A stretch of 64,000 nt of DNA, from the NCBI GenBank assembly GCA_041613315.1, contig JBFJHJ010000013.1:1-64000 (forward strand). Reading direction: 5' to 3'. The notes beneath the pieces are model-generated. The model was not told the origin of the DNA and ran no database searches. It saw only the letters and a list, made by a program, of their open reading frames with translations. Source of the DNA: Gemmatimonadales bacterium (GTDB taxonomy: Bacteria; Gemmatimonadota; Gemmatimonadetes; Gemmatimonadales; GWC2-71-9). The translations under genes were made by a program, and so were the position numbers. Of the stretch, positions 20,149-64,000 are shown piece by piece (the stretch's first letter is position 1; the number at the start of each line of letters is the position of its first letter).

Positions 20149-20155
20149 GCACCCC

Positions 20156-22089: not shown

Positions 22090-22091
22090 CC

Positions 22092-22454
22092 ATGACGCGC
22101 CGAATCTTGGTGTGCGACGATGCCATGTTCACGCGCGGCATGCTGGGCGGGATCTTCGCCGGTGCCGGCTACGACGTCGTCGGCGAGGCCGAGTCCGGTG
22201 TGGAGGCGGTGGCGCAATACAAGCGCCTGCGGCCGGACGTCGTGACGATGGACATCGTGATGCCCGGCCTGGGCGGGATCGACGCCGTGCGCGAGATCCT
22301 GGCGTTCGACCCGGACGCGCGGATTATCATGTGCAGCGCCATGAATCAATCGAAGCTGGTACAACAGGCTCTGGACGCGGGCGCCAAGGAGCTGATCGTC
22401 AAGCCGTTCGTGACCGCGGACGTGCTCGCGGCGATCGAACGCGTCCTGTCATAG
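22092..22454 (+). CDS. cheY: Chemotaxis response regulator CheY
   Basis: ILVCDDAMF, PDVVTMDIVMP, MCSAM, IVKPF; adjacent to cheC. Confidence 0.88.
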   Translation: MTRRILVCDDAMFTRGMLGGIFAGAGYDVVGEAESGVEAVAQYKRLRPDVVTMDIVMPGLGGIDAVREILAFDPDARIIMCSAMNQSKLVQQALDAGAKELIVKPFVTADVLAAIERVLS

Positions 22455-22475
22455 CACGGACCGGAGGAGACGCGC

Positions 22476-23093: not shown

Positions 23094-23142
23094 TGTCGTC
23101 GCAGCGTTCAGCGGCCCGCGGCTCGCCCTCATGACATCGGCG

Positions 23143-24102: not shown

Positions 24103-24126
24103 TGGTCGGCTCCCTCTCAGATCCGG

Positions 24127-45883: not shown

Positions 45884-46081
45884 GGATGCCTCCCACTTGC
45901 CGGTGTTCACGGCAGCATGGCTCGCCGCCGGTGAAGCCCCACGGAATCTTCTATGAAAGGTATATGGGGATCGACGGCGATGTGGCGTCCAAGTTGACCG
46001 GCTCCGGCGACGGGGCTACCATACGCGCCGGGTTTCGGTCGCGAGGCCGTCGCCCACCGATGACGACGACCCGGCGCCTTC

Positions 46082-47131: not shown

Positions 47132-47142
47132 GAACGGGTGTG

Positions 47143-48954: not shown

Positions 48955-48955
48955 C

Positions 48956-49537
48956 GTGACGCACGCCGCCGCGCACCACACGAGCACCGGACTGGACAGC
49001 CGCAAGATGGCCTTCTGGACCTTTATCGGGTCCGAATGCCTCCTGTTCGGGTCGCTGATCTCGACCTACCTCGTCTACAAGGGGCAGAGCGTCACCGGCC
49101 CGACGACGCACGAGATCTTGAACATCCCGCTGACGTCGGTCAGCACGTTCGACCTGCTGATGTCCAGCCTGGCCATGGTGCTGGCACTCGCCGCCGTGGC
49201 CCGAGGGGACCGGCTCTGGGCGCGTGTCTGGCTCGCGACCACGGCGCTGCTCGGCGCCGTGTTCCTCGGCATCCAGGCGTACGAGTTCACCACGTTCGTC
49301 CATGAGGGGCTGACGCTCCGGACGAACCTGTTCGGGTCCACCTTCTTCGTGCTCACCGGCTTTCACGGCGGCCACGTGTTGATCGGCGTGGTGTGGCTGC
49401 TCACCTTGCTGTTGCGATCGTTCCAGGGAAAACTCGGACCCGAGCACGCGCTGAACGTCGAGATCGCCGGACTCTACTGACACTTCGTGGACGTTGTGTG
49501 GATCGTGATCTTTACCGTGGTCTACTTGATCCAATAA
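48956..49537 (+). CDS. ctaE: Cytochrome c oxidase subunit III with in-frame TGA at 49478-49480 (recoded, pseudogene or sequence error)
   Basis: FWTFIGSECLLFG, FFVLTGFHGGHV, then GLY*HFVDVVWIVIFTVVYLIQ ending in TAA at 49535-37, which overlaps the ATG of the next gene. Confidence 0.88.
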
Positions 49538-49857
49538 TGGACGGGGCGATGGACCAGCAGCGAGAACATCACGAGTCGGCGCATCCCAGCACGGCGACCT
49601 ACGTCGTCATCGCGGCGATCCTCACGGTCATCACGCTGGTGGAGGTGGGCGTGTTCTACGTACCGGCGTTCAAGCCGGTACTGGCGCCGATTCTCCTCGT
49701 GCTGTCGGCGGGCAAGTTCGCGCTCGTGGTCATGTTCTACATGCATCTGAAGTCGGACCACCGGTTATTCACGCTGCTCTTCTCCCTGCCGCTCCTTATC
49801 GCTCTCGGGGTGGCCCTGGCGCTGCTGTTCCTGTTCGGCGTGTTCGTGTCGGGGTGA
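49537..49857 (+). CDS. ctaF: Cytochrome c oxidase subunit IV (caa3-type)
   Basis: YVVIAAILTVITLVEV, KFALVVMFYMHLK; 3 TM. Confidence 0.9.
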   Translation: MDGAMDQQREHHESAHPSTATYVVIAAILTVITLVEVGVFYVPAFKPVLAPILLVLSAGKFALVVMFYMHLKSDHRLFTLLFSLPLLIALGVALALLFLFGVFVSG

Positions 49858-49943: not shown

Positions 49944-50525
49944 TCAGCTAGCGGGTGGCTCCCGCAGGTCAGGGGTCGGCTCGCGGTACGCATCCACATG
50001 CTCGCCCGCGGCCTCGTCGAGCGGCTCGCCCAGCGGGTGGGCCAACAGCTCCTCGCGGATCTTGGGGTGCATCCGCCACAGGTAATAGCCCATGCCAAAC
50101 GCCGCAATCGCGTTGCCGATCGCGACGTTCCACCAGGTGAGCGCGCCGAGGAGGGGCTGCGCCACGACGGCCAGCAGGATGTAAAAGCCCACCTCGAAGA
50201 TCGCGAAGAAGACGACGACGATGTACAACGTGGACGGGAACAGCTCGATCTCGTACGCGAGGGCGGCCGCAATCACGCCCACCGCGACGAAGGCGACCAC
50301 ATGGACCATCGTGTAGCCGATGACGGTGGCGAAAACCTGTTCACCCGTCGGGAAGATCGCGCCCACCTGGGCCGGATCCCGCAGACCCCAGAAGAGCGCG
50401 GCGCCGAGCATCTTCGGGGTGAAGAATGGCTGCCCGTTGACGGTGTCGACAACGAGAAACCACAGGGCCACGGCGGCCGCACCGATGAGTCCGGCCACGA
50501 AGCCCTCCCGAAGGATCCGTTGCAT
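49944..50525 (-). CDS. Hypothetical integral membrane protein (about 4 TM)
   Basis: Hydrophobic ORF MQRILREGFVAGLIG...YTMVHVVAF...; divergent from the 50630 cluster. Confidence 0.75.
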   Translation of the reverse strand: MQRILREGFVAGLIGAAAVALWFLVVDTVNGQPFFTPKMLGAALFWGLRDPAQVGAIFPTGEQVFATVIGYTMVHVVAFVAVGVIAAALAYEIELFPSTLYIVVVFFAIFEVGFYILLAVVAQPLLGALTWWNVAIGNAIAAFGMGYYLWRMHPKIREELLAHPLGEPLDEAAGEHVDAYREPTPDLREPPAS

Positions 50526-50629
50526 CAGTCCCCCTTGCACGGGCGGTCGGCACCCAATATAGGGACTCGTGCCCGCCTGGCGAGTCCCGATTGCGGCGCA
50601 TCGGCATTCTCACTCAAATTACGGGACGC

Positions 50630-51013
50630 ATGACCCGCGACCTCAAGTTCCGTCAGGCGGCATTGGTGTACCTGCACGTCGGCATCCTCTACGAGGGCGC
50701 CGTCGTGGCCATGTGGCAGCGGGGTCTGCTCTTTCCGCACGGCCCGCCATGGATGCGGGCGATCCCGCCCTGGGGGTGGATGCTCATCGGAGCAGCCATC
50801 GTCGCGGTGGTCGTGTGGGGGCTGTGGACGTGGCAGAACGTCTGGTTCGCCCGCGCCGTGTGGTTCATCGGCAGCCTTCGCGTCCCCACGTTGCTGGCGG
50901 GGGCGTTCTTTCCGCGGCCGGAGCACGTGCTGAGCCCCGCGTTCTACGGAACCGCGCTCGCCGTCGTGCTCATCAACCTCTGGATGCTCGCCCGCGCGGC
51001 ATGGGACGTATGA
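50630..51013 (+). CDS. Hypothetical integral membrane protein (about 4 TM)
   Basis: MTRDLKFRQAALVYLHVGILYE...LWMLARAAWDV; ATGA overlap with the next gene. Confidence 0.75.
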   Translation: MTRDLKFRQAALVYLHVGILYEGAVVAMWQRGLLFPHGPPWMRAIPPWGWMLIGAAIVAVVVWGLWTWQNVWFARAVWFIGSLRVPTLLAGAFFPRPEHVLSPAFYGTALAVVLINLWMLARAAWDV

Positions 51014-51909
51014 CGCCGGATTTCCGCACCTATCATGACGTGACAGGGGACGATCGCTCCGGCCTGCTCGAGCAAGTGGGGCGCCAGCGGGAGCGCGTAC
51101 GCGCCCGCCTCGCCGACGTGAGCCGCGTGGTGGCCGTCATGAGCGGTAAGGGCGGCGTTGGCAAGAGTCACGTCACCGCTGGCCTCGCCTACGCCGTGGC
51201 GACACGGGGGGAGGGCGCCGTCGGCGTTCTGGATGCGGACCTCCAGGCCCCGACGGCGGCCCGCCTGCTTGATGCCCGCGGTCCGGTACGCGTGGGAGAC
51301 GACGGCGCCGAGCCGGTGATGGGTGCGGGTGGCGTGCGGGTGTTCTCGATGGACCTCCTGCTGGCGGAGGGACAGCCGTTGCGCTGGCGCGAGCCGGAGT
51401 CGGAGCGATTCGTGTGGCGTGGCACGCTCGAGACGGGCGCGCTCCGTGAGTTTCTGAGCGACGTCCGGTGGGGTGCCCTGGAAGTGCTGCTCATCGATCT
51501 GCCGCCCGGAGCCGCGCACCTCGCCGACCTCAAGTCGCTGGTGCCGGCCCTGACCGGCGCCGTCGCCGTCACGATCCCGAGTGAGGAATCCCGGCGGGCG
51601 GTGGAGCGCGCCATTCGCGCGGCCGGGGACGCGGGCATCCGGCTCCTGGGCGTGGTGGAGAACCTGAGCGGGTACGCCTGTGCCGGGTGCGACTCGACCC
51701 AGCCGCTGTTCCCAGGTGACGCCGGTGCGTCGCTCGCGCGCGCTTTCGGAGCGCCGTTGCTTGGCCGGATCCCCTTTACTCCCGCGCCGCCGCCGGCAGA
51801 CGAAAGCGGTCGGGTGTGGCCGCCGCCGCCCGCGCGTTCCGCCGCCGTGGCGGTTCCTCCCGTTGTGCCGTCCTCGCTGGTGGACGCGTTTCTCGAGGCC
51901 CTGTCATGA
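51010..51909 (+). CDS. Mrp/NBP35/ApbC family P-loop ATPase (Fe-S carrier-like)
   Basis: VMSGKGGVGKS, LDADL, LIDLPPG, GVVENLSGYACAGC. Confidence 0.9.
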   Translation: MTPDFRTYHDVTGDDRSGLLEQVGRQRERVRARLADVSRVVAVMSGKGGVGKSHVTAGLAYAVATRGEGAVGVLDADLQAPTAARLLDARGPVRVGDDGAEPVMGAGGVRVFSMDLLLAEGQPLRWREPESERFVWRGTLETGALREFLSDVRWGALEVLLIDLPPGAAHLADLKSLVPALTGAVAVTIPSEESRRAVERAIRAAGDAGIRLLGVVENLSGYACAGCDSTQPLFPGDAGASLARAFGAPLLGRIPFTPAPPPADESGRVWPPPPARSAAVAVPPVVPSSLVDAFLEALS

Positions 51910-52346
51910 AATTCCTTTGCGTCGACTGCGACGAGCGGATGCACTTCGAGGAGCGCGACGTTCCGGGCGACGGGACGTTCGCCGCGGCGTTCACCTGTCC
52001 CCGGTGCGGGCGGCGCATCGCGCTCCTCGCCAACCCCATGGAGACGCAGCTCGTCGAATCGCTCGGCGTGCAGATCGGCGGCCGGCGGCTCGACGAGCAG
52101 CCCCTCGAGCTCGTCCGGCAGCGGGTGGTGGGCCGCGAAGACGCTTTCGAGGATGCCGAACGGCCGCCCCGCGGCCGGCCCGCATGGAGCCCCGAGGCAC
52201 GCGAGCGCCTCGGCCGCGTGCCGAATTTCGTGCGGGGCATGGTGCAGAAGATCTACGCCGAATACGCCGCTGAGCGCGGGATCGCCGAGATCACACCTGG
52301 CGTGATGGATCAGGCGCGTCAGGAGCTGGGACTGGAGGGGATGTAA
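51906..52346 (+). CDS. Zn-ribbon-like (CxxC...CxxC) protein with C-terminal PCP_red-like domain
   Basis: CVDC, CPRC; WSPEARERLGRVPNFVRGMV...ITPGVMDQAR. Confidence 0.8.
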   Translation: MKFLCVDCDERMHFEERDVPGDGTFAAAFTCPRCGRRIALLANPMETQLVESLGVQIGGRRLDEQPLELVRQRVVGREDAFEDAERPPRGRPAWSPEARERLGRVPNFVRGMVQKIYAEYAAERGIAEITPGVMDQARQELGLEGM

Positions 52347-52589
52347 GTGCCGGACGTTGAGCAGCGGGCCGTCGGCGGCCTGAGCGTGCGGATCGACCGC
52401 ACGCTCTGCGTGGGCTTCGGGGACTGCATCACGGAAGCGCCGGAGGCCTTCGCGCTGGACGGCGAGGGGATCGCCGTGTTCCTCGCTCCCGAGGCTGTCG
52501 ATCGCGAGCGGTTGCTCCGCGCGTGCGACGCGTGTCCCGTGGACGCGCTCACGGTGGTGGACGACGGAGGCCGGCAACTCGTCCCTTGA
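52347..52589 (+). CDS. Small monocluster ferredoxin (probably 3Fe-4S)
   Basis: IDRTLCVGFGDC...APEAF...ACDACPVDAL. Confidence 0.88.
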   Translation: MPDVEQRAVGGLSVRIDRTLCVGFGDCITEAPEAFALDGEGIAVFLAPEAVDRERLLRACDACPVDALTVVDDGGRQLVP

Positions 52590-52614
52590 CACACCCGCCA
52601 GGGGGTCCCATACT
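52586..52614 (+). promoter_or_regulatory. Sigma70-like internal promoter
   Basis: TTGACA (52586-91), 17-nt spacer, CATACT (52609-14), ahead of a ~150-nt leader and GGAGG RBS. Confidence 0.6.
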
Positions 52615-52763
52615 CGCCCCGAGCGTAGGGGAAAAAGGCGCCGCTGACGGATTCTCGGTGGGGAAGCAGCCGGCAACCGGCGTGGCACCCGCCGTCGTCG
52701 TGATACAGAGATCGCCAGATCTGTTGCCTTCCGAACACGACCATCCGGGCCGGAGGCCGTGCT

Positions 52764-54764
52764 GTGTATAGGGAAATCTTCGTTCCCGTCGATAACTCCC
52801 AGCATTCCAATTGGGCCGTCGACCGCGCGATCGAGATCGCGGCCACCACCGGGGGTTACATCACCGGGAATCACGTGTATGCCGCCCGTCTGCACGACAT
52901 ACGGTTCCGCCAGTTGGAGACCGGGCTCCCCGCCCGATTCCAGACGCCCGAGGAGATCAAGCGCCAGCGCAAGGTGCACGACAAGCTGATCGAGAAAGGC
53001 CTCCAGTTGATTTCGGACTCGTTCCTCGACCAGGTCGAGCTGCGCGCGGCGCGGGCGGGCGCGCCGCTGCGCCGGCAGCTGCTCGAAGGCATCAACTATG
53101 AGGAGATCGTCCGTGAGGTGAACCGGGGCGAGGGCACTCTGCCGAGCCTCATCGGCTTCGATCCGAACATCGCGGCGAGCTATGACGGCGGCGCCACGGT
53201 GCGGAGCGACGTGCGGTTGGGGGCCGATGGGCGCATCGTCGGCGAGGACGAAGATCAGGCGGACAAGGTCGCCGGTACGTCGGGGCGGCGCTACGACCTG
53301 ATCGTCATCGGCGCACACGGTATCGGCCGTCAGCCCTACTCCCAGCTGGGCGGCGTCGTCGGTCGGGTGGCCCGCGGCGTCGAGAAGGACATGCTCCTGG
53401 TGCGCGACGACCGCCCGCTGGCGGGCGGCACCCTTATGGTGTGCGTGGACGGGTCCTCATACAGCTACAAGGCGATGCGCGAGGCACTGGAGCTCGCCCG
53501 CCGCTTCGGCTCGTCGCTGTACGTGTGCAGCGCCTTCGACGTGGAGTACCACCACGCGGTGTTCCACAACATCAAGGACGTCCTGTCGGTCAAGGCCTCG
53601 AAGGTGTTCAAGTTCGAGGAGCAGGAAGAGCTGCACAACAACATCATCGACAAGGGTCTGCTCAAGCTCTCCCAGGCAAACCTCAAGCGGGCCGAAGTGA
53701 TGGCGCAGGAGTTCCCCGACGTCCCGCTCACGACGCAAATCCTCATCGGCAAACCGTTCCAGGTGATCCTCCAGTGGGTCGAGGAGGTCCGTCCATCGCT
53801 TCTCGTGATCGCACGGCACGGCGCGCACCGCATCGAAGGGACCGAAATGGGGTCGCAGGCCGAGAATCTGATCCGCCTTGCGCCCTGCAACATGCTGGTC
53901 GTCGGCACGCAGGCCGTCCGTCCTGAAGAGATTCCGTGGATCGAGGAGGACGGCGAGGCCGGACTTCCCTGGGCGCCCGAGGCGGAGGTCCGCATTCTCC
54001 GGGTGCCGCCGTTCGCCCAGGGGATCGCGCGCCGGGCGGTGGAGGAATACACGGCGGAGCACGGTGGCGACGTGGTGACCAACCCATGGCTGGACCAGGC
54101 GATCCAGAAGCTTCTCCCGACCCACATGCAGCTCATCATGGGCATCGGCGATGCCGAAGAAGTCGCCCGGGCCGAGGTGAAGGCCGAAGAGCAGATGGCG
54201 AAGACGGTGGTGCGCGGGAGCGACCGTGACCAGGAGGCGGGGGGCGCAACCCTCGAGGTCCGCTGTCCCGTGACCGGCCACGTCACCACGCGGCCGCGAA
54301 CGGCGGCCGACCAGCCGGTATGGACCCGGGAGGCGTTCGAGCGTCTGACGGTGGTGCCGCTCATCGCCCGGCCCCTCGCCCGCATGACCGTCGAGCGATT
54401 CGCGCGGCAGCACGATGTCTGGCGGATCACCACGAGCGTGATGGATGAGAACAAGCAGGCCATGATCGAGGCGGACGAGTTCGACGCCGAGACCATGATG
54501 GGCATGTTCCGCGAGCTGCGGGCCAAGCAGATCCGGGCGGAGGCCGAGGGTCGCGACGCTTTATCGCCGGAGATGCGTCAATTCATCGAGGAGGCGAAGC
54601 GCGCCGGGGTCACACGCTGCCCGATCCGTGACCTCGAGGATCGCAGTATCGACGAGCAGATGGCCGCCTGTCCGGTGGACTTCAAGCTGGCGACCCCCGC
54701 CGACGCGAAGGCGGCCGTCGAGCGCGTGCTCTCTCAGGAGACGGAGGAGGAGCCGGAGCCGTGA
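52764..54764 (+). CDS. Multi-domain universal stress protein (2x USP + 2x PCP_red-like + Cys-Pro motifs)
   Basis: IFVPVDNS...DLIVIGAHG; MVCVDGS...LLVIARHG...MGSQAENLIRLAPCNMLVV; two W-x2-EA-x2-R-x3-VP domains; RCPV, RCPI, ACPVD. Confidence 0.85.
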   Translation: MYREIFVPVDNSQHSNWAVDRAIEIAATTGGYITGNHVYAARLHDIRFRQLETGLPARFQTPEEIKRQRKVHDKLIEKGLQLISDSFLDQVELRAARAGAPLRRQLLEGINYEEIVREVNRGEGTLPSLIGFDPNIAASYDGGATVRSDVRLGADGRIVGEDEDQADKVAGTSGRRYDLIVIGAHGIGRQPYSQLGGVVGRVARGVEKDMLLVRDDRPLAGGTLMVCVDGSSYSYKAMREALELARRFGSSLYVCSAFDVEYHHAVFHNIKDVLSVKASKVFKFEEQEELHNNIIDKGLLKLSQANLKRAEVMAQEFPDVPLTTQILIGKPFQVILQWVEEVRPSLLVIARHGAHRIEGTEMGSQAENLIRLAPCNMLVVGTQAVRPEEIPWIEEDGEAGLPWAPEAEVRILRVPPFAQGIARRAVEEYTAEHGGDVVTNPWLDQAIQKLLPTHMQLIMGIGDAEEVARAEVKAEEQMAKTVVRGSDRDQEAGGATLEVRCPVTGHVTTRPRTAADQPVWTREAFERLTVVPLIARPLARMTVERFARQHDVWRITTSVMDENKQAMIEADEFDAETMMGMFRELRAKQIRAEAEGRDALSPEMRQFIEEAKRAGVTRCPIRDLEDRSIDEQMAACPVDFKLATPADAKAAVERVLSQETEEEPEP

Positions 54765-56095
54765 GGCGTTCGGCCGTGGCGCTGCTGGGGGAGTCGCCGG
54801 CGCGCGCGACTCCCGGCGCTGAGCCCGTGCCACACGTGGTCGCGTGGAACCTCACGCGCCGGTGCAACCTGGAGTGTGCCCACTGTTATATCGCGGCGGG
54901 GCCACAGGAGTCGGCAACGGACGAGCTGACCACCCGGGAATGCCTCCGCATCGCAGACGAGATTCTCGCCCTCAACCCCGCGCCGATGTTCATCCTCTCG
55001 GGCGGCGAGCCGCTGTTGCGCGAGGACCTGACCACCATCGCGGCGCATGCCAGCAGACGGGGGGCGACCGTCGTCGTGGGCACCAACGGTACGCTGCTGA
55101 CGGATGACCGCATCGCCGCGCTGTGCGATGCCGGGGTAAGCGGCGTCGCGGTCAGCGTGGAGTCGCTGGACCCGTCGTACCACGATCGCTTCCGCCGCGG
55201 GCACGGCTCGCTCGCCGCGACGCGCGCGGCGGTGAAGCGCCTCGGCGTGCGCGGCGTGGACGTGGTGATCCAGACGACGATTACCAAGCACAACCGCGAC
55301 GAGCTCCGACCGCTGGTGGCATGGGCGGCGGATCAGGGCGCCGTCGCCTTCAATGCGTATTTCCTCGTGGCCACGGGACGCGGCGCCCGCATGAGCGGCC
55401 TCACCCCGGAAGGCTACGAAGCCGTGCTCGAGGAGTTGGTGGACCTGCACCAGACCTACCTCGGCCGATTGATGGTCCGGGCGAAATGCGCACCACAGTT
55501 CATGCGGCTGGTCCACCGCCGCATCCCCGACTCCCCGATCCTCAACTATGCGACGCGGTGCCCCTGCGGCGTGCAGTACTGCCGGGTGACGCCGGACGGA
55601 CAGGTGACGGCCTGCCCGTACCTGCCGCTGCCAGCGGGCGACTTGCGGACCCAGTCGTTTGCCGAGGTGTGGCGCGCCTCGCCGCTGTTCCGCGACCTGC
55701 GGCAGGGCACGCTGGGGGGGAAGTGCGGCACCTGTGAGTATCGCCGGCTCTGCGGCGGCTGCCGGGCGCGTGCTTTCGCCACGGACGGCGATCCCCTCGG
55801 AGCGGATCCGTCGTGCGCGTACGAGCCGTCCGGCGACGTCCCGGTGATCGAGCCGGCGCGCGCCGTCACCTACGGGATGCCGGCCGTCCCAACCCTCCGC
55901 TGGACACCGGAAGCGGAAGCGCGCCTGCAACGCATCCCGTCGTTTGTGCGCGGGGTGGTGGTCCGGCGGCTCGAGGACTACGCCCGTCGCGAGGGGAAGT
56001 CGGAGGTGACCGTCGACCTGATGGACGAGGTGCGGAAGACCATGCCGGTGGATTTCTCGAAACGCCTGCCGTTCTTCGCGCGCCATGACCGCTGA
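54761..56095 (+). CDS. Radical SAM/SPASM enzyme, AhbC/AhbD/NirJ-like, with C-terminal PCP_red-like domain
   Basis: VAWNLTRRCNLECAHCY, SGGEPLLR, CPCG...ACPY...GKCGTCEYRRLCGGCRARA...DPSC; C-terminal WTPEAEARLQRIPSFVRG. Confidence 0.88.
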   Translation: MRRSAVALLGESPARATPGAEPVPHVVAWNLTRRCNLECAHCYIAAGPQESATDELTTRECLRIADEILALNPAPMFILSGGEPLLREDLTTIAAHASRRGATVVVGTNGTLLTDDRIAALCDAGVSGVAVSVESLDPSYHDRFRRGHGSLAATRAAVKRLGVRGVDVVIQTTITKHNRDELRPLVAWAADQGAVAFNAYFLVATGRGARMSGLTPEGYEAVLEELVDLHQTYLGRLMVRAKCAPQFMRLVHRRIPDSPILNYATRCPCGVQYCRVTPDGQVTACPYLPLPAGDLRTQSFAEVWRASPLFRDLRQGTLGGKCGTCEYRRLCGGCRARAFATDGDPLGADPSCAYEPSGDVPVIEPARAVTYGMPAVPTLRWTPEAEARLQRIPSFVRGVVVRRLEDYARREGKSEVTVDLMDEVRKTMPVDFSKRLPFFARHDR

Positions 56096-57776
56096 CCTGA
56101 CATTCCTGCTCCAGGCGGCGGCCGACACCGCGGGCGCCTACGGACACTTCCCCGGCGTCGGCGCGCGCGGCGCCGTGTGGATCGCCGCGGAAGTGCATCT
56201 CATGTTCGCGGCGTTCGTGCTTGGCGTGCCGATGTTCGCGGTGATCACCGAGCTCATCGGCATCGTCACCAAGGACCCGAAGTACGACACGCTGTCCAAG
56301 GAGTTCACCCGGCTCCTGGTCTTCGCCTACAGCGCCACGGCGTTGTGGGGCGCGGTGCTCGTCTTCTTTCTGACGACGCTGTACCCGCGGTTCTGGAACC
56401 ACATGACGGAGATCTTTCACCTGTCCATGTGGATCTACGTCGGAGTGTTCTTCGTCGAGTCCTTCACGCTCTACCTCTATTACTACGGGTGGGACCGCTG
56501 GAAGGCGGGACGGGCGAAGCTCGGCCATTGGGGGCTGGGCGTGCTGCTGAACGTGTGGGGCACCATCGTGATGTTCATCGCGAACGGGTGGCTCACGTAC
56601 ATGATGTCGCCGCCCTCCGGAGCCACGCCCCAGGGCCTCCCGCCCGAGGTGAGCCTCTGGAATGCGATCGCCAACGCGACGTGGATGCCGATCAACATCC
56701 ATCGGCTGATCGGGAATGCGGTCTTCGGCGGGACGATCGTGGCGGCCTACGCGGGCTACCGCTTCCTCTCGGCGAAGACCGACGAGGAGCGGGCCCATTA
56801 CGACTGGATGGGCTACGTCGGCAACTTCATCGCGATTTCGACGTTCATCGTGCTGCCCTTCGCGGGCTACTACCTGGGCCGGGAGATCTACGAGTACAAC
56901 CAACAGATGGGCATCACCATGATGGGCGGCTTCATGAGCTGGCTGTGGATCGTGCAGGCCGTGCTCATCGGCGTGCTGTTTCTGGCCGCGAATTACTACC
57001 TGTGGATCGGCATGGGGCGCATTCCGGGAGCGGAACGATTCATGCCGTATACGAAGTGGATGCTGCTCGTCCTCGTAGTCGGCTGGCTGGTGTGGGCGAC
57101 GCCGCACACCATGATCGCCAGTCGTGAAGAGCTGGCCGCCATGGGCGGATCGCACCACCCCTTCCTCGACGTCCTGGGGGTGATGAGCGCGAAGAACACG
57201 GCCGTCAACCTCATGATCCTCACGACGTTCTTGTCGTTCCTCCTGTACCGCCGCGCCAACAAGCGGCCCGTGGTGCCGTGGGCCAGGAGCGGCACGATCG
57301 TCCAGAGCGCCATGTTCGGCATCGCCGTGGCGGTCGTCGTGGGGTACGGCATCGCGGGGTACTTCGTCCCCGACATCGTGCGGATCGGGTACAGTGTCTA
57401 TCAGGTCCTGACCGTGCTGGCGTGTATCATCGGCGTCACGGTGGTCGATCTGGCGCTGGTGCGCGGCGCGGAATCCCGGGGGGCGATCCGCTGGGGACGA
57501 ATGCCGGAGCGCTCGCAATACGCCCTCTTCGTCTTGGCCGTGACCTTCACGTGGCTCATGGGGTTGATGGGGTTCGCCCGCAGCGGGATCCGCCAACACT
57601 GGCACGTCTGGGAAGTCTTGCGCGACACCAGTCCGTTCGCCGCCACGCCCCCGCTCGGCGCGGCCGCTAACATGATCAGCGTCTGCGTCGTGATCTTTCT
57701 CGCGCTGGTGGCATTCATCTTCTGGCTGGGTGGCCTGGCCGAGAAAGCCGTGGCCAAGCCGGCAGCGAGGGCCTGA
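56085..57776 (+). CDS. Cytochrome bd-like (CydA-superfamily) polytopic membrane protein; no cydB partner
   Basis: EVHLMFAAFVLGVPMF, FFVES, ANGWLTYMMSP, NIHRLIGN and GIRQHWHVWEVL parallel the CydA H19, FFLES, ANSWMQxP, H186 and GRQPW regions. Confidence 0.8.
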   Translation: MTADLTFLLQAAADTAGAYGHFPGVGARGAVWIAAEVHLMFAAFVLGVPMFAVITELIGIVTKDPKYDTLSKEFTRLLVFAYSATALWGAVLVFFLTTLYPRFWNHMTEIFHLSMWIYVGVFFVESFTLYLYYYGWDRWKAGRAKLGHWGLGVLLNVWGTIVMFIANGWLTYMMSPPSGATPQGLPPEVSLWNAIANATWMPINIHRLIGNAVFGGTIVAAYAGYRFLSAKTDEERAHYDWMGYVGNFIAISTFIVLPFAGYYLGREIYEYNQQMGITMMGGFMSWLWIVQAVLIGVLFLAANYYLWIGMGRIPGAERFMPYTKWMLLVLVVGWLVWATPHTMIASREELAAMGGSHHPFLDVLGVMSAKNTAVNLMILTTFLSFLLYRRANKRPVVPWARSGTIVQSAMFGIAVAVVVGYGIAGYFVPDIVRIGYSVYQVLTVLACIIGVTVVDLALVRGAESRGAIRWGRMPERSQYALFVLAVTFTWLMGLMGFARSGIRQHWHVWEVLRDTSPFAATPPLGAAANMISVCVVIFLALVAFIFWLGGLAEKAVAKPAARA

Positions 57777-57780
57777 CGCC

Positions 57781-58572
57781 ATGTGGCTCACGAACCTGAA
57801 AGTGGGGGCCGTCGGGCTGCTGGTGATCCTGTTCTATACGGCCGTGGCCCACGTGATCCCGCAGCTGCAGTCGGAAGTGCCGCAAGCCGTGGCGCTCGGC
57901 GACGATGTGAGCCCTGCCGTGCTGGCCGCCACCGGCGAACAGGTCTACAACGGTGCGGGGGGGTGCACCGCCTGTCACGGGCTGGGTACCCGCGCGCCCA
58001 ACCTGCTCACCGACTACGCGGGGCAGGGACCCATCGGGGCGCGCTGCCAGCAGCGGCTCGATGCCGACTGTAAGCGCTACCTGCACGCGTCGCTGACGCA
58101 CCCCGGTGACTCGGTCGTGCTGCCGTTCGCGAACATCATGCCCGACGTCGCCCGCCAGTTGGGCGACCCGCGCGCGGTGTGGGCCCTCGTGGCGTTCCTG
58201 CAAGCGCAGGGCGGTGAGATCACCGTGACGGCCGATGATGTCCAATCTGCCGCCGCCCGTGAAGCACCGGCGAGCGGGGGCGGCGAGGCGGTCGCCCGGT
58301 CGGCGACGATGGACCCGCGGCAGCTCCTCCAGGAGCACGCCTGTACGGGCTGTCACGCGATCGACGGGGCCGGACCTCCGATCGGGCCGTCCTTCGACGG
58401 CATCGGGTCCCGGATCTCCGCGAACCAGATCCGCCGCGGCATCCTCGATCCCGATGCAGAGGTCACCCGCGGGTTCGAACCGTTCGCAGGGATGATGCCC
58501 AAGACCTTCGGGCAGCAACTGTCGGCAGCCCAGCTGGAAGCGATCGTGCAATTCCTGGCGAACCGCAAGTGA
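57781..58572 (+). CDS. Membrane-anchored diheme cytochrome c
   Basis: CTACH...NIMP and CTGCH...GMMP in two similar domains; N-terminal TM. Confidence 0.9.
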   Translation: MWLTNLKVGAVGLLVILFYTAVAHVIPQLQSEVPQAVALGDDVSPAVLAATGEQVYNGAGGCTACHGLGTRAPNLLTDYAGQGPIGARCQQRLDADCKRYLHASLTHPGDSVVLPFANIMPDVARQLGDPRAVWALVAFLQAQGGEITVTADDVQSAAAREAPASGGGEAVARSATMDPRQLLQEHACTGCHAIDGAGPPIGPSFDGIGSRISANQIRRGILDPDAEVTRGFEPFAGMMPKTFGQQLSAAQLEAIVQFLANRK

Positions 58573-59381
58573 GCATCATGCATCAGGTCAAAGAAGCGCT
58601 CCGACATCCGTTCTGGCAGGCGGTACTGCTGCTGGTCGGGGCGTACGTGCTGTTCAAGTTCGGCGTCGCGTATCTGCCACCCGTGTTTGGCGTACCCAGC
58701 GCGCCGGTGCCCCGGAGCGTCCTGCTCCAGTACATGCTCACGGCGCTCGTCGGCATCCTGATCTACGTGAGCGACAACGAAGAACGCTGGCGCCGGTTCA
58801 AGGCGCCGATCGCCGCCACTCTCGTCGACGCCGACAAGCGCTGGCTCCGGGGGGCGCTGCTCGTGCTCGGGCCGGCGCTGGTCGGGTTCGTCGCGTACGA
58901 ACAGGTACGTCCCAAGGTGTCGGCGCCCGTCCAGCTCCGCTCGATACACCCGGCGCCGCCGGGGCAGATCACGTTCCGCGGTCAGACCATCGCGCTCGAC
59001 ACGCTGCAGAACCCGCTTCGGGCACGGGGCTCGCTCGAGGAGCACGTGGCGGCCGGCCGGCGCATCTACTATCAGAACTGTCTTCCCTGCCACGGTGACC
59101 TGCTGGACGGCCGGGGGCACTTCGGGCACGGCTTCAACCCCACGCCCCTCGCCTTCGACAAGGGGACCATCGCACAGCTGCGCGAGAGCTTCGTCTTCTG
59201 GCGGGTGGCGAAAGGGGGACCCGGCCTGCCGCGCGAAGGCGGGCCGTGGAACTCGGCCATGCCGGTGTGGGAGGACTTCCTCACAGCCGACGAGATCTGG
59301 GCCGTCGTGACCTTCATGTATGAGCAAGCGGGCGTGCAGCCACGCCAGCTCGGCGCGGGCGAGGGAGGGGGCCATGATTAG
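58569..59381 (+). CDS. 3-TM membrane-bound monoheme cytochrome c
   Basis: Three hydrophobic segments, then CLPCH and SAMPVW. Confidence 0.88.
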   Translation: MSIMHQVKEALRHPFWQAVLLLVGAYVLFKFGVAYLPPVFGVPSAPVPRSVLLQYMLTALVGILIYVSDNEERWRRFKAPIAATLVDADKRWLRGALLVLGPALVGFVAYEQVRPKVSAPVQLRSIHPAPPGQITFRGQTIALDTLQNPLRARGSLEEHVAAGRRIYYQNCLPCHGDLLDGRGHFGHGFNPTPLAFDKGTIAQLRESFVFWRVAKGGPGLPREGGPWNSAMPVWEDFLTADEIWAVVTFMYEQAGVQPRQLGAGEGGGHD

Positions 59382-60993
59382 CCGGACCGGCGGCAGGGCG
59401 GTAGGGCGGTATGTCGCTCCGGTGACCAGAGCGGCCATCGCCCTGCTGACTCTTCTCGCTGCCGGACCGCCGCACCGCCTGACCGCCCAGGGGGAGGCGG
59501 GGGAGCCGGGCAAGGCGACCTACGACAAGTGGTGCGCCGAATGCCACGGCACGACCGGCGCCGGCGACGGAAGCGCCGCCCCGTTCATGCTGCCGAGGCC
59601 GCGCGACTTCACCCGTGCCCTGTACCAGATCCGCACGACGGCGAGCGGCGAGTTGCCGACGGACCGGGACATCCAGCGGGCGGTGGACGAGGGGATGCCG
59701 GGGACGGCGATGCCTGGGTGGAAAACGGAGCTCTCGGATCGGGAGCGGCGTGACGTCATCACGTACATCAAGGCCTTCTCGCGGTTCTTCGACGGCGCAG
59801 CACCCCAGCCCCTCGATTTCGGGAAGGCTCCGGGCCGATCGGCCGATGGGCTCGCCGAGGGCCGCCGCGTGTACGAGCAGCTCGAGTGCTTCAAGTGTCA
59901 CGGGGACCAGGGCCGGGGGGACGGGCCGTCGGCGCCGACGCTGACGGATGACTGGGACCACCCCATCCGCGCGGCGAACCTGCACAAGCCGTGGACCTTC
60001 AACGGTGGCGGCACCGTGGAGCAGATTTACCGGCGCATCCGCACGGGCTTGGACGGCACGCCGATGCCGTCGTACTCCGACGCGCTTGCCGCGGGGCTGG
60101 TCACGGAGGAGCAGCTGTGGCGCGTCGCCCAGTATGTGCGGAGCTTGGGTCCCGAGGAATCTCCACCGCGCGTGCGCGACGTGTTCCGGGCGGTGCGGCT
60201 CGAGGGCGAGCTGCCGACGGGGCCGGACGACGGTGCGTGGGCGGGGGTGGAAGGGTTCTACGTGCCGCTCGTCGGTCAAATCATCCGGAAGCCGCGGTGG
60301 TTCGCGCCCCGGGTGGACGCCGTCTGGGTCCAGGCCGTGCATGACGGACGGCGGCTGGCGCTGCGGCTCGCGTGGGACGACCCCTCGAAGAGCCCGGACC
60401 CGCTGTGGCAGGAGTCGACGGACCGGATGGCGGCCGCGGTGACCGATGTGGACGGCCCCGTGCCGACGGGACAGAGCGGCGATCGGTTCCATGTGCAGTT
60501 CCCGCTGCGGCTCACCGACGGGATGGAGCGGCCCTACTTCCTGGGTGGCGACGCGCGGCGGCCCGTGTACGATTGGCGCTGGTCGAGCGCACCCGATCGC
60601 CTGGAGGAGGGGACGGCGACGGGCCTCGACCGGTTCAATGCCGCCCCGGGCGGGCCGCAGGTGACGCACGCGGCCGTCTACGATCAGGGGCAATGGCGCC
60701 TGCAGCTCACGCGGGTGCTGGTGCCGGCGGACTCGGCAGCTGCACTCACGTTCGTCGAAGGGCGGGCGATCCCGGTGGCGTTTTTCGCCGCGGACGGCAG
60801 TGACGGCGAGGTGGGCTTGCGCGGGTCGGTGAGCGCCTGGTACGCCGTCTATCTCGACGTGCCGACGCCCGTGTCGGCGTTCGTGACGCCGCTCGTGGCC
60901 GTGTTGCTTACGGCAGGCTTCGGTATCATGGTATTATGGAGAGCACAGCGGCGCGGCCGTGCGGCCGCGCGTCCTCACGCGGAGGGATCATGA
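59374..60993 (+). CDS. Diheme cytochrome c fused to an EB_dh/DOMON-like domain with C-terminal TM anchor
   Basis: CAECH...PRPRDFT...TAMPGW; CFKCH...TPMPSY; VQAVHDGRRLALRLAWDDP, DRFHVQFP, PVYDWRW; C-terminal hydrophobic helix. Confidence 0.85.
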   Translation: MISRTGGRAVGRYVAPVTRAAIALLTLLAAGPPHRLTAQGEAGEPGKATYDKWCAECHGTTGAGDGSAAPFMLPRPRDFTRALYQIRTTASGELPTDRDIQRAVDEGMPGTAMPGWKTELSDRERRDVITYIKAFSRFFDGAAPQPLDFGKAPGRSADGLAEGRRVYEQLECFKCHGDQGRGDGPSAPTLTDDWDHPIRAANLHKPWTFNGGGTVEQIYRRIRTGLDGTPMPSYSDALAAGLVTEEQLWRVAQYVRSLGPEESPPRVRDVFRAVRLEGELPTGPDDGAWAGVEGFYVPLVGQIIRKPRWFAPRVDAVWVQAVHDGRRLALRLAWDDPSKSPDPLWQESTDRMAAAVTDVDGPVPTGQSGDRFHVQFPLRLTDGMERPYFLGGDARRPVYDWRWSSAPDRLEEGTATGLDRFNAAPGGPQVTHAAVYDQGQWRLQLTRVLVPADSAAALTFVEGRAIPVAFFAADGSDGEVGLRGSVSAWYAVYLDVPTPVSAFVTPLVAVLLTAGFGIMVLWRAQRRGRAAARPHAEGS

Positions 60994-61763
60994 GACGAGT
61001 CGTAGTGGCATCGGTCTGCATCGCATTCGGCGCGTTCGCTTGCGGTGGTGGAGAGAGTGGTGGCGGTGGGGGCGCGGGTACCGGCGGTGCAGCAGGTGGG
61101 CCGAGCGGCCCGATGGGCCAGGCCAGCGTCGCGGGGGTCGTGAACTTCCAGGGTACGGCGCCCGCCAATCCGACCATCGATATGGCCAAGGAACCGACGT
61201 GCCGCGACAAGTACTCGAGCGCGCCGAGGGATCCGCAGGTGCTCGTCACCGATGGCAAGCTGGCGAACGTTTTCGTCTACGTGAAGAGCGGACTGCCGGC
61301 AGGAGCGAAGTATGCGGCGCCGGCGACCCCGGTGGAGCTGGACCAGGAGGGTTGCCTCTATCGTCCGCGGGTCTTCGGCGTAATGGTGAGCCAGACGGTC
61401 GCGATCAAGAACAGCGACGCGCTGATGCACAACATCAAAGCCGTGCCTCACGAGAACCGCGGGTTCAACATCAGCCAGCCCACGGCGGGGATGACGACGA
61501 CGCGGACGTTCAACACGCGCGAGATCATGGTCCCCTTCGAGTGCAACGTGCACGGCTGGATGCGCGCGTACGCGGGCGTCCTGGATCATCCGTTCTTCGC
61601 GACCTCGGCGCAGAACGGCACGTTCACGATCCCCCGGATGCCGGCGGGTACATACGAGCTGGAGGCGTGGCACGAGAAGTTCGGCACCCGGAGCGCGACG
61701 GTGACGGTGCCCGATACCGGAACGGTGCGCGTCGAGTTCCGGTTCAGCGCGTCGACGTCCTGA
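60990..61763 (+). CDS. Lipoprotein with cupredoxin-like core and carboxypeptidase-regulatory-like beta domain
   Basis: AFAC lipobox; LDQEGCLYRP, MHNIK, CNVHGWM; GTYELEAWHE. Confidence 0.8.
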   Translation: MRRVVVASVCIAFGAFACGGGESGGGGGAGTGGAAGGPSGPMGQASVAGVVNFQGTAPANPTIDMAKEPTCRDKYSSAPRDPQVLVTDGKLANVFVYVKSGLPAGAKYAAPATPVELDQEGCLYRPRVFGVMVSQTVAIKNSDALMHNIKAVPHENRGFNISQPTAGMTTTRTFNTREIMVPFECNVHGWMRAYAGVLDHPFFATSAQNGTFTIPRMPAGTYELEAWHEKFGTRSATVTVPDTGTVRVEFRFSASTS

Positions 61764-61776
61764 CGGGAGACGGTGC

Positions 61777-62451
61777 ATGAACTGGCTTCTGCCGGGCGGC
61801 GTCTCGACGTTCGCCGGCGACATCGACCGCCTCTACTACGTGATCCTCGGCATCACGGGCGCGGCGTTCGTGATCGTCGAGGTCGCGCTGATCTGGTTCT
61901 TGATCAAGTACCGCGCCCGGCCGGGCCGGAAAGCGTATTACACGCACGGTAGCGTCAAGGCCGAGGTGATCTGGACGACGGTGCCGGCGGTGGTGGTGGT
62001 GATGATCGGCATTCTGAGCGGCGGAGTGTGGAACCAGATCCGGGGCCGCGACAGCGTGCCGCCGGGGGCGTTACCGCTGGCCGTGCACGCGAAGCAGTTC
62101 GAGTGGCTCGTCACCTATCCTGGTCCGGACGGCCAGCTCGGGACCGACGACGACTTCGAGCGGCGCAACGACCTGCGGCTCCCGGTGGACACGCCGATGG
62201 TGATCGCTCTGACCTCGGAGGACGTGATCCATTCGTTCTTCATCCCGGAGTTCCGAGTGAAGCAGGACGTCGTGCCCGGCATGACGATCCGTGCCTGGTT
62301 CGAGGCCACCGCGACGGGTGAGTACTCGCTGGCCTGTGCCGAGCTCTGCGGGAACGGCCATACGACGATGGGCGGCACGGTGACCGTGCTGTCGCTGGAC
62401 GAGTACACCCAGTGGCTCGCGGACCCGAGCCGAACCGTGGCTTCGCGGTAG
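61777..62451 (+). CDS. ctaC: Second cytochrome c oxidase subunit II (no fused cytochrome c)
   Basis: KQFEW, DVIHSFF, CAELCGNGHTTM CuA site; 2 TM. Confidence 0.95.
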   Translation: MNWLLPGGVSTFAGDIDRLYYVILGITGAAFVIVEVALIWFLIKYRARPGRKAYYTHGSVKAEVIWTTVPAVVVVMIGILSGGVWNQIRGRDSVPPGALPLAVHAKQFEWLVTYPGPDGQLGTDDDFERRNDLRLPVDTPMVIALTSEDVIHSFFIPEFRVKQDVVPGMTIRAWFEATATGEYSLACAELCGNGHTTMGGTVTVLSLDEYTQWLADPSRTVASR

Positions 62452-62463
62452 AGGAGCGCGCAC

Positions 62464-64000
62464 ATGGCGACGATGGCAGCGACGATCGATCACGCCCACG
62501 CCCACGTGGACGATCGGTCGTTCCTCCGCAAGTACATCTTTTCGACCGACCACAAGATCATCGGGATTCAGTTCCTCATGTTGAGCTTGCTGTTCCTGCT
62601 GATCGGCGGCCTGCTCGCGATGATGATGCGGTGGGAGCTGGGCTTCCCGACGCAGCCGATGCCCGGCGGCACCCTGTTGCCGGAGACGATGGCGCCGGGC
62701 GGGATTCTCCTGCCGGAGTTCTACAACTCCCTCGTCACCATGCACGGCACGTTCATGGTGTTCTTCGCGATCATGCCGCTCTTGGTGGGCGTCTTCGCGA
62801 ACTACTTGATCCCGCTCAAGCTCGGCGCGCCGGACATGGCGTTCCCCCGGTTGAACATGGCGTCGTTCTGGATCGCCGTGCCGGCCGGGGTCCTCATGCT
62901 CGCGGGCTTCTTCGTCGAGGGCGGCGCCGCCGGTGCCGGGTGGACGTCATACGCGCCGCTCAGCGCCAACGCCGAGTACTCCGGCGTGAGCTTGGGGCAA
63001 GAGCTCTGGTGTCTCAGTCTCGTCGTGTTGGGGCTCTCGTCAATCCTGGGCGCCACGAACTACATCACGACGGTGATCAACATGCGGGCGCCCGGGATGA
63101 CCTGGTTCCGCATGCCGCTCTCGATCTGGTCGCTGTTCATCACCGCGATCCTGACGCTCCTCGCGATCCCGATTCTGTCGGGAGCGGCGATTATGCTGCT
63201 CTTCGATCAGACGATCGGGACGACCTTCTTCCTGCCGGCGGAGGGCGGGCAGCCGCTGCTGTGGCAGCACCTGTTCTGGTTCTTCGGGCACCCGGAGGTC
63301 TACATCCTCATCCTGCCGGCGATGGGCATGGTGTCGGACATCATCGCCAATGGCGCGCGCAAGCCGATCTTCGGCTATCACTCGATGGTCTACGCGATCA
63401 TCGGGATCGGCTTCCTGGGCTGGATCGTGTGGGGGCACCACATGTTCCAGAGCGGGATGAACCCGACGCTCGGTACGACCTTCATGATCTCGACCATGCT
63501 GATCGCCGTCCCGTCGGCCATCAAGACGTTCAACTGGCTGGGGACCCTGTGGCGCGGCAACATCCGGCTCCACGTGCCGATGCTGCACGCGTGCGCCTTC
63601 GTGGCGATGTTCGTCATCGGCGGATTGAGCGGTGTGTACATGGCGTCGACGCCGGTCGACATCTACATCCACGACACGTACTTCATCGTGGCGCACCTGC
63701 ATTACGTGCTGTTCGGCGGCAGCCTCTTCGCCCTATTCGGGGCCATCACGTTCTGGTACCCCAAGATGTTCGGCCGGATGATGAACCCGCTCTTGGGGAA
63801 GGCGCACTTCTGGCTGACGTTCCTGTTCTACAACCTCACTTTCTTCCCGATGCACGAACTGGGGCTGCAGGGCCACATGCGTCGGATCTACGACCCGACA
63901 CAGTATGCCTTCCTCCAGCACCTGCAGCCGCTCAACGAGTTCATCACGCTGAGCGCATTCCTGCTGTTCGCGGTACAGCTCATCTTCGCCGTGAACTTCA
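62464..64000 (+). CDS. ctaD: Second cytochrome c oxidase subunit I (A1 type; partial, runs off window end)
   Basis: Not in the ORF track. Hand translation: STDHKIIG, TMHGT, WFFGHPEVY, WGHHMF, VAHLHYV, GHMRRIY. Confidence 0.96.
   Translation, partial: MATMAATIDHAHAHVDDRSFLRKYIFSTDHKIIGIQFLMLSLLFLLIGGLLAMMMRWELGFPTQPMPGGTLLPETMAPGGILLPEFYNSLVTMHGTFMVFFAIMPLLVGVFANYLIPLKLGAPDMAFPRLNMASFWIAVPAGVLMLAGFFVEGGAAGAGWTSYAPLSANAEYSGVSLGQELWCLSLVVLGLSSILGATNYITTVINMRAPGMTWFRMPLSIWSLFITAILTLLAIPILSGAAIMLLFDQTIGTTFFLPAEGGQPLLWQHLFWFFGHPEVYILILPAMGMVSDIIANGARKPIFGYHSMVYAIIGIGFLGWIVWGHHMFQSGMNPTLGTTFMISTMLIAVPSAIKTFNWLGTLWRGNIRLHVPMLHACAFVAMFVIGGLSGVYMASTPVDIYIHDTYFIVAHLHYVLFGGSLFALFGAITFWYPKMFGRMMNPLLGKAHFWLTFLFYNLTFFPMHELGLQGHMRRIYDPTQYAFLQHLQPLNEFITLSAFLLFAVQLIFAVNF

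Follow-up and report, generated by a model that had tools for sequence, protein, structure and literature searches.

Gene inventory of the cluster

The stretch of DNA analysed here, referred to as the window, comprises 64,000 nucleotides of a Gemmatimonadales bacterium, that is positions 1 to 64,000 of contig C13 of genome G000. The contig is 73,198 bases long and belongs to an assembly of 2.63 Mb in 52 contigs, which is 82.9% complete and has a G+C content of approximately 69%. The names carried by near-identical proteins assign it to Gemmatimonadota. At the 3′-end of the window lies a gene cluster encoding a CydA-like membrane protein of the cytochrome bd type, three c-type cytochromes and a cupredoxin, together termed the module in the following, which are followed by an A1-type haem-copper oxidase and preceded by six genes, termed the kit, that are centred on a radical S-adenosylmethionine (SAM) enzyme. 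Genes were called by Pfam and NCBIfam searches and by direct translation. All 13 genes that had been named in a preliminary description of this DNA were recovered in the order given there and on the + strand, and the distribution of two, one and two CxxCH motifs over the three cytochromes was likewise borne out:

50591..51013, + strand: small membrane protein of 140 amino acids with 3-4 hydrophobic spans, without family match; the first kit gene
~51079..51909, + strand: P-loop Fe-S cluster carrier of the Mrp/NUBPL type (PF10609, 177.8 bits; MrpORP, 167.9 bits, below the 450-bit cut-off)
51906..52346, + strand: zinc-ribbon protein (CxxC...CxxC) with a C-terminal PCP_red domain (PF08369, 52.8 bits)
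52347..52589, + strand: single-cluster ferredoxin of 80 amino acids (PF13459, 41.7 bits)
52764..54764, + strand: cytoplasmic universal stress protein (USP) with two USP and two PCP_red stretches (PF00582, 109.1 bits; PF08369, 67.5 bits)
54761..56095, + strand: AhbD/NirJ-group radical SAM/SPASM enzyme with a fused PCP_red domain (PF04055, PF13186, PF08369)
56085..57776, + strand: CydA-like (bd-like, OR-N type) membrane protein (PF01654, 65.9 bits; 0 CxxCH)
57730..58572, + strand: first, dihaem cytochrome c with an N-terminal membrane anchor (2 CxxCH; PF00034; likely start ATG at 57778)
58569..59381, + strand: second, monohaem cytochrome c with two N-terminal membrane helices (1 CxxCH)
59320..60993, + strand: third, dihaem cytochrome c with an EB_dh/dimethyl sulphoxide (DMSO)-reductase-gamma-like domain and a C-terminal anchor (PF13442, PF00034, PF09459; TIGR03477, 71.9 bits, below cut-off)
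60936..61763, + strand: predicted lipoprotein in which a CarboxypepD_reg-like beta-sandwich comes after a type-1 cupredoxin domain (assigned by profile, conservation and model)
61777..62451, + strand: CoxII with a CuA site (CAELCGNGHTTM) and without a cytochrome c domain (TIGR02866, 160.7 bits, above cut-off)
62464..64000, continuing to C13:64224, + strand: CoxI of an A1-type haem-copper oxidase (PF00115, 509 bits; GHPEV)

The start codon of the Mrp gene is uncertain, its frame being open from 50569. Downstream of the window, the CoxI gene is completed and those of CoxIII, CoxIV and CtaB come after it, so that the cluster extends up to position C13:66109. The genes abut or overlap, mostly by 4-11 bases, and the sole sizeable gap, of 175 bases, separates the ferredoxin gene from the USP gene. 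Within this gap, a sigma-70-like site is found at 52586-52614 (TTGACA, a spacer of 17 nt, and CATACT; 10 of 12 matches). The scan from which it derives was as a whole not above chance, with 3 promoter-like sites versus 1.2 expected and 8 terminator-like sites versus 5.5 expected, and is uninformative. A selenocysteine in the USP protein was considered and rejected, since the flagged TGA is the true stop codon at the C-terminus.

Placement of the CydA-like protein

An AlphaFold (AF2) model of the CydA-like protein derived from 23 relatives comprises 13 transmembrane helices, with a predicted local distance difference test (pLDDT) score of 84.9 and a predicted template modelling (pTM) score of 0.84. 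When this model was compared with known structures by Foldseek, the top ten matches were all subunit I of bd oxidases, at 13-16% sequence identity and with target-normalised TM-scores of 0.54-0.59. Sequence alignment with the solved bd oxidases is limited to the N-terminal part of the protein. Alignment to Escherichia coli CydA by hhalign equates His38, Glu125, Ser126 and His206 with His19, Glu107, Ser108 and His186, respectively, whereas Glu99 of canonical CydA is replaced by an invariant tyrosine (Tyr118). The counterparts of the haem ligands His19 and His186, namely His38 and His206, are invariant in 23 of 23 sequences, and Met280, Met492, Met495, His507 and the RQxW motif are likewise invariant among the relatives, as is His148 at the end of helix 4 that faces the cytoplasm. 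The W...G...RQxW signature of CydA is also retained at the C-terminus, with Leu494 at the position of Glu445 in a stretch that is aligned with low confidence. In the model, four helices (residues 273-425) take the place of the Q-loop of canonical CydA. Moreover, Arg266 and Glu267, both invariant in 23/23 sequences, are positioned in the periplasmic turn after helix 6, which is where the canonical Q-loop starts. Compared with canonical CydAB (E. coli bd-I; PDB entries 6rx4, 6rko and 5doq), the protein hence has the subunit I fold, His19, His186, Glu107 and the RQxW motif in common, and it differs in that no CydB was found, by the absence of the Q-loop, by the four extra helices, and by the replacement of Glu99 and Glu445 by Tyr and Leu, respectively.

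The search for cydB by PF02322 yielded 0 matches in the genome (82.9% complete), and no gene of the cluster corresponds to CydB. A quick maximum-likelihood tree split E. coli CydA, together with four canonical CydA proteins of Gemmatimonadota that are each followed by CydB, from all bd-like sequences with a value of 100 in the Shimodaira-Hasegawa-like approximate likelihood ratio test (SH-aLRT). The protein encoded in the window is placed within a Gemmatimonadota clade beside a Methylomirabilota clade, and named relatives were found in Nitrospira sp./Manganitrophaceae, a Nitrospinae bin, Chloroflexota and Fibrobacterota. Other Gemmatimonadota do encode canonical CydAB pairs, among them genome G068 (locus L138), which carries the bd-like cluster as well.

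According to the accessible part of the preprint by Murali, Gennis and Hemp (10.1101/2021.01.16.426971), the OR-N proteins are relatives of bd oxidases that lack the quinol site; the subfamilies N1 and N2 have 14 helices, and N2 is often the single CydA-like gene of its operon. The OR-N proteins are treated as putative cytochrome-c-oxidising O2 reductases, with their function unconfirmed, in the available portions of PMC10839748 and PMC12342949. Like these proteins, the CydA-like protein shares the four N-terminal helices including His19 with the bd oxidases and has neither a quinol site nor a haem c motif of its own. The model contains 13 helices versus 14 for N1 and N2; a 14th may come from the membrane anchor of the adjacent cytochrome, and in some relatives the two proteins are fused. 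Judged from its sequence, the CydA-like protein is an OR-N-type member of the bd superfamily and not a canonical CydA. The failure to find cydB, the missing Q-loop and the split in the tree uphold the earlier proposal of a bd-superfamily member without CydB, and the grouping with canonical CydA that would have spoken against it was not found. The remark in the same description that the biochemistry of this branch is unresolved agrees with the Murali preprint, PMC10839748 and PMC12342949, as far as their text is accessible.

Electron carriers and the linked oxidase

The haem-binding residues of the cytochromes are strongly conserved. In the monohaem cytochrome, Cys171, Cys174 and His175 are invariant in 23/23 sequences, and in the third cytochrome, which resembles the published 'alternative NxrC', both CxxCH motifs as well as the distal residues Met131 and Met249 are invariant. 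Moreover, several of the module proteins occur as natural fusions. In P0121, P0125, P0135 and L090, the CydA-like protein and the dihaem cytochrome c are one polypeptide, L090 being from NC10 CSP1-5 with a frame of 826 amino acids (L090:9950-12427), and the second and third cytochromes form one protein of 756 amino acids in two Rokubacteria (L106:12568-14835 and L107:12574-14841). These fusions suggest that the proteins may form a single complex.

In the lipoprotein, His165, Cys203, His206 and Met209 (C-x2-H-x2-M) are invariant in 16/16 aligned sequences. The family profile matches the blue-copper protein 5fc9 in the PDB (E=9e-4), and the AlphaFold model (pLDDT 84.6) retrieved amicyanin, pseudoazurin and plastocyanin in Foldseek searches. 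As judged from this model, the domain is a type-1 (blue) cupredoxin with predicted copper binding. The four invariant ligands, the profile match and the modelled fold confirm what had before been called a cupredoxin-like lipoprotein.

The CoxI proteins of the window, of which there are two, both contain the sequence GHPEV, which we take to be the A1 signature in helix VI of CoxI. With GHPEV in CoxI, the CuA site in CoxII, CoxIII and CoxIV, the oxidase linked to the module displays the features of an A1-type oxidase. Since CoxII possesses CuA and lacks a cytochrome c domain, the linked oxidase requires an outside electron donor.

The other CoxI of the window belongs to a second A1-type oxidase upstream of the kit (46064-49857), which comprises a CoxII-cytochrome c fusion of the caa3 type, CoxI, CoxIII and likely CoxIV. 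A second oxidase upstream of the module was found in 0/18 related genomes; at locus L025, parts of it lie downstream in the opposite orientation. Contig C5 encodes a third CoxI. Between the two oxidase clusters there is a frame of 221 codons on the minus strand (49944-50609) with a third-position G+C of 0.85 and no Pfam family; the + strand frame that overlaps it (49998-50633) appears non-coding.

The radical SAM genes upstream of the module

Across its radical SAM/SPASM core (residues 26-356), the kit enzyme has its best NCBIfam matches in the AhbD/NirJ/NirJ2 group, with 284.3 bits for NirJ2 (TIGR04055) and 275.2 bits for AhbD (TIGR04545). It differs from these enzymes in that both scores are below the cut-offs of 500 bits and in that it carries an additional PCP_red domain at the C-terminus, which matches the C-terminus of BchB in the PDB. 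PCP_red is known from the C-terminus of protochlorophyllide reductase subunit B, and in BchB, the tetrapyrrole-binding subunit, this domain contacts the tetrapyrrole. The genome contains four copies of PCP_red, all of which are located in the cluster, namely in the zinc-ribbon protein, twice in the USP protein, and in the radical SAM enzyme. By their domains, the kit genes read as a self-sufficient radical SAM system, in which the enzyme would be accompanied by an Fe-S loader and a ferredoxin as reductant and by PCP_red domains on three proteins in all.

Fusions resembling the radical SAM-PCP_red protein are commonest in Gemmatimonadota, Nitrospinota and Acidobacteriota. From this distribution, the kit may track OR-N proteins more widely, which we regard only as a lead. 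The internal order of the kit varies: in the families f7 and f9 (L019-L025) it is ferredoxin, Mrp, zinc-ribbon-PCP_red, membrane protein and USP, as compared with membrane protein, Mrp, zinc-ribbon-PCP_red, ferredoxin and USP in the window, and the genes stay together in both. The USP protein of f6 and f7 has an insertion between residues 435 and 437.

Linkage of kit, module and oxidase across genomes

The conservation of the cluster was followed in 18 fetched related genomes and in the best 80 of 622 matches in a species-genome collection, where locus counts are limited to those with enough flanking sequence (at least 7.5 kb downstream for the cytochromes and cox genes). These two sets partly represent the same genomes, and as the relatives are non-independent, the counts are descriptive. 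The orthologues of the CydA-like protein are 71-86% identical across families of the class. The gene order from Mrp to CoxIV was retained in 18/18 of the fetched genomes, and this recurrence argues that it is not due to chance; a homologue of the small membrane protein was detected within the kit by tblastn in 9 of the 18. Among the loci titled as Gemmatimonadota within the best 80 of 622 matches, the three cytochromes were present in 45/45, and the cupredoxin, CoxII and CoxI in 44/45. The five larger kit genes were found upstream in 43/43 of those Gemmatimonadota loci, again within the best 80 of 622, that have enough upstream flank.

Another 14 of the best 80 matches, with identities of 59-65%, are from Methylomirabilota, Rokubacteria or NC10, or are untitled. 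In the 11 of these loci that were readable, the three cytochromes were found in 11/11, the cupredoxin in 10/11, the cox genes in 9/11, and the kit upstream in 1/11. In four further Methylomirabilota genomes, USP, radical SAM and Mrp are encoded directly downstream of coxIII-coxIV, and in a fifth they are located upstream. The linkage of the kit is thus kept in all five Methylomirabilota genomes checked (5/5), in an altered arrangement.

The co-occurrence of module and kit was then counted per genome. Of 401 sampled Gemmatimonadota (the source genome and one unpublished genome, G157, are included among the positives), 115 contain the CydA-like protein and 114 the USP-PCP_red protein; 113 contain both, two only the CydA-like protein and one only the USP protein, and both CydA-like-only cases are situated at contig ends. 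In 121 sampled Methylomirabilota, whose completeness is unstated, the corresponding numbers are 71 and 70, with both proteins in 62. One genome of the latter sample, G426, encodes a USP-PCP_red protein that is 76% identical to that of the window, versus 36-42% in other genomes there (G426:C28:92798-98175). Its gene is placed directly upstream of that of the CydA-like protein, as in Gemmatimonadota, which may reflect gene transfer or a binning error.

Paralogous modules are present at loci L026 (G127:C1:2105000-2124900) and L027 (G381:C7), with CydA-like proteins of 50-54% identity, two cupredoxin genes and three cytochromes; both G127 and G381 hold the main cluster as well. More distantly, a Nitrospirota-like metagenome contig (L120) encodes a four-gene core whose CydA-like protein is 48% identical to that of the window. 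In five metagenome loci around Nitrospirota-like relatives of P0141, one of which is L120, tblastn detected neither kit nor cox genes within ~10 kb.

Taken together, the linkage of the module to the cox and maturation genes, the loss of which in other genomes would have spoken against the preliminary description, is conserved across the genomes surveyed in two phyla.

Counterparts in nitrite oxidisers and anammox bacteria

Neither the OR-N family nor the core of the module is new, and the core has been described beside nitrite oxidoreductase (NXR) in nitrite oxidisers and anammox bacteria. As described in the accessible part of PMC3578206 (Lücker et al. 2013), Nitrospina, Nitrospira and Kuenenia encode next to NXR a bd-like protein with 14 helices, in which helices replace the Q-loop, together with two cupredoxins, a zinc-finger protein, an alternative NxrC and two cytochromes c, one monohaem and one dihaem. 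The haem b ligands of the bd-like protein are kept (PMC3578206, PMC6606698 and PMC9040806, in part), and a possible function akin to alternative complex III (ACIII) was proposed for this module (PMC3578206). The portions of PMC6606698 (Mundinger et al. 2019) at hand add that its genes are among the most highly transcribed in N. moscoviensis, and a similar set was named TO_1 in Ca. Manganitrophus (PMC9040806, in part).

The cluster of the window shares with the NXR-associated module the bd-like protein, the mono- and dihaem cytochromes c, the alternative-NxrC-like protein, a cupredoxin and a zinc-finger protein. In contrast, it contains no nxr genes and is joined instead to a complete A1 oxidase and to the radical SAM/PCP_red kit. 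The accessible parts of the descriptions of the NXR-associated module mention neither a link to an oxidase nor such a kit (PMC3578206, PMC6606698, PMC9040806). In line with this, no nxrABC or other molybdoenzyme gene was found in the cluster, and the only PF00384 matches in the genome (82.9% complete) are on contigs C10, C28, C30 (ActB) and C6. The match on C10 (G000:C10:60592-61860; E=1.8e-74) is a molybdopterin oxidoreductase with one in-frame TGA in a frame of 1002 codons, which is maybe a selenocysteine enzyme such as formate dehydrogenase.

A literature search, with most subscription journals outside its range, returned no work linking bd-like proteins to Gemmatimonadota, radical SAM enzymes or PCP_red. 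Two features of the cluster thus appear to be new: the joining of the module to a complete A1 oxidase with a CuA-only CoxII in two non-nitrifying phyla, and its near-perfect co-occurrence with a cytoplasmic radical SAM kit.

Relation to complex III

The preliminary description had offered the module as a complex III substitute. As a replacement for complex III this did not stand: a complete ACIII operon is encoded on the minus strand of contig C30 (~17100-24650; L006 7118-14652) and comprises, according to Pfam, multihaem ActA, ActB, ActC (NrfD), ActE (cytochrome c) and ActF (NrfD), with ActD matched by PF11821 in the genome-wide search. ActD is also present in 386/401 sampled Gemmatimonadota, with or without the cluster, including 30/30 of f6, 69/70 of f7 and 4/4 of f9, where the cluster is common. 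Because ACIII is retained in this genome, and ActD in most others, the module represents an accessory branch and not a replacement of complex III.

ACIII-caa3 and the actinobacterial bcc-aa3 are assemblies of a quinol:cytochrome c oxidoreductase with an oxidase. The likeness of the module to them lies in its possible working and not in membership: in each case, membrane-anchored multihaem c subunits, the presumed donors, are encoded beside an A-type oxidase. In contrast to these assemblies, no Rieske protein, cytochrome b, or ActB/ActC subunit of the molybdopterin-like or NrfD type is found in the module, and a separate ACIII is encoded in the genome.

A putative electron-input branch and competing explanations

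From gene content, fold, the kept haem ligands, synteny and co-occurrence, we infer the electron donor, the direction of flow, a physical contact with the oxidase, and what the radical SAM enzyme makes. We propose, at a probability of roughly 0.42, that the module is a dedicated electron-input branch to the linked A1 oxidase which is equipped with its own haem-tailoring kit. The bd-like protein would take up electrons, most simply from menaquinol, at a rebuilt site near the haem of His206; Arg266 and Glu267, invariant where the Q-loop would begin, could be part of such a site. Quinol is the simplest donor because no periplasmic dehydrogenase is encoded in the cluster, either here or at any locus read. 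The ACIII-like function put forward for the NXR-associated module (PMC3578206) is a related suggestion that also favours this proposal. From the bd-like protein, electrons would pass via the five c haems to the cupredoxin and on to CuA of the linked oxidase. The predicted task of the six upstream genes is to produce a tailored haem for the bd-like protein or to insert it there. An extended form of this proposal, which we consider unlikely, would make the bd-like protein, the three cytochromes and the cupredoxin a third quinol:cytochrome c/cupredoxin oxidoreductase beside bc1 and ACIII; in aerobes it would be joined obligatorily to its own aa3 oxidase in a supercomplex, in nitrite oxidisers it would run in reverse behind NXR, and it would contain a new haem derivative that is made by the radical SAM enzyme and delivered by the PCP_red-domain proteins.

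Several observations weigh against the electron-input branch. The alignments of the CydA-like protein, whose reliable hhalign stretch ends at 232/212, contain no counterpart of the Q-loop with the quinol-binding residues Lys252 and Glu257, and the quinol-binding residues of canonical CydA are missing from bd-like proteins in general, as stated in the accessible parts of the Murali preprint (10.1101/2021.01.16.426971) and PMC3578206. The kept counterparts of His19, Glu107 and Ser108 belong to the O2-reducing and proton-channel half of CydA, which a pure electron relay does not obviously need. In the EB_dh-like domain of the third cytochrome (residues 295-510), no position holds Met, Lys or His in 11 or more of the 16 sequences, and conserved Asp, Glu and Tyr are present; a haem b in this domain is doubtful from its sequence, or would be held by other ligands. 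Around the paralogous modules L026 and L027, tblastn revealed no cox or kit genes in the ~20 kb fetched, and in NC10 CSP1-5 kit and module are present with no cox genes within 10 kb. Moreover, a genome depending solely on the module was not found, as the two carriers without ActD have cytochrome b (G185) or NrfD matches (G221), and since ACIII is also present, an extra quinol route is not needed for respiration. Finally, no RNA data are listed for 54761-60993, and the five listed runs are marine metagenome DNA.

The kept residues and the paralogous modules without cox genes nearby point at the same time to the main rival, in which the bd-like protein itself is an O2 reductase that oxidises cytochrome c, so that two terminal oxidases, for instance for low and high oxygen, would share the cytochromes c and the cupredoxin. 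His148 is invariant, too, and in the accessible portions of the Murali preprint (10.1101/2021.01.16.426971) and PMC10839748 the OR-N proteins are viewed as putative O2 reductases with cytochrome c as the donor. However, Glu99 is exchanged for an invariant Tyr, and Leu is found at the position of Glu445; the module is conserved in anammox bacteria, which are anaerobic (PMC6606698, PMC3578206, in part), and it would be left unexplained why the module is strictly linked, in both phyla, to another oxidase that is complete. We consider this explanation somewhat unlikely. A different donor is envisaged if the module tethered some periplasmic dehydrogenase to the membrane and acted as its wire, so that the electrons of this enzyme would reach the oxidase by bypassing the quinone pool, parallel to the role proposed at NXR. 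The missing quinol-binding features would fit, as would the EB_dh/DMSO-reductase-gamma-like domain of the third cytochrome, which is shared with the 'alternative NxrC' (PMC6606698, accessible part). Yet none of the loci read has a dehydrogenase gene in the cluster, and the molybdoenzymes of the genome, as far as it is complete, are confined to the four contigs named above with none near the cluster, which makes this explanation improbable.

With regard to the kit, its function may not be specific to the bd-like protein. The radical SAM enzyme could be an oxygen-independent coprohaem decarboxylase of the AhbD type which, with its helpers, supplies ordinary haem b to the whole operon. This would agree with the AhbD score of 275 bits, with the name 'AdoMet-dependent heme synthase' given to some orthologues by the Joint Genome Institute (JGI), and with the many haems that the operon needs. 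However, this score falls well short of the 500-bit cut-off and is slightly exceeded by that of NirJ2, and a fragment of ChdC at the end of contig C42 makes it probable that another coprohaem decarboxylase is present in the genome. Moreover, the kit is absent from 287/401 Gemmatimonadota, including genomes with canonical CydAB and ACIII, and in NC10 CSP1-5 it adjoins the module where cox genes are lacking. A general haem b synthase is on these grounds quite unlikely.

Implications

Since 2010, the bd-like (OR-N) proteins have been debated, in the literature accessible to us, as candidates for the terminal oxidase, or for the link to quinone, in major nitrifiers and in anammox bacteria. The function of the module cannot be specific to nitrite, because it is present without NXR in 115/401 Gemmatimonadota and 71/121 Methylomirabilota. 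The clusters described here offer a cleaner, NXR-free test system from soil and marine phyla of the heterotroph type, where the module is firmly tied to an ordinary aa3 oxidase. Likewise, the strictly co-occurring radical SAM/PCP_red kit provides a handle on the question of which haem the bd-like protein carries and of what makes it. If the module is indeed a quinol-oxidising entry to the oxidase, it would constitute a new class of complex III analogue.

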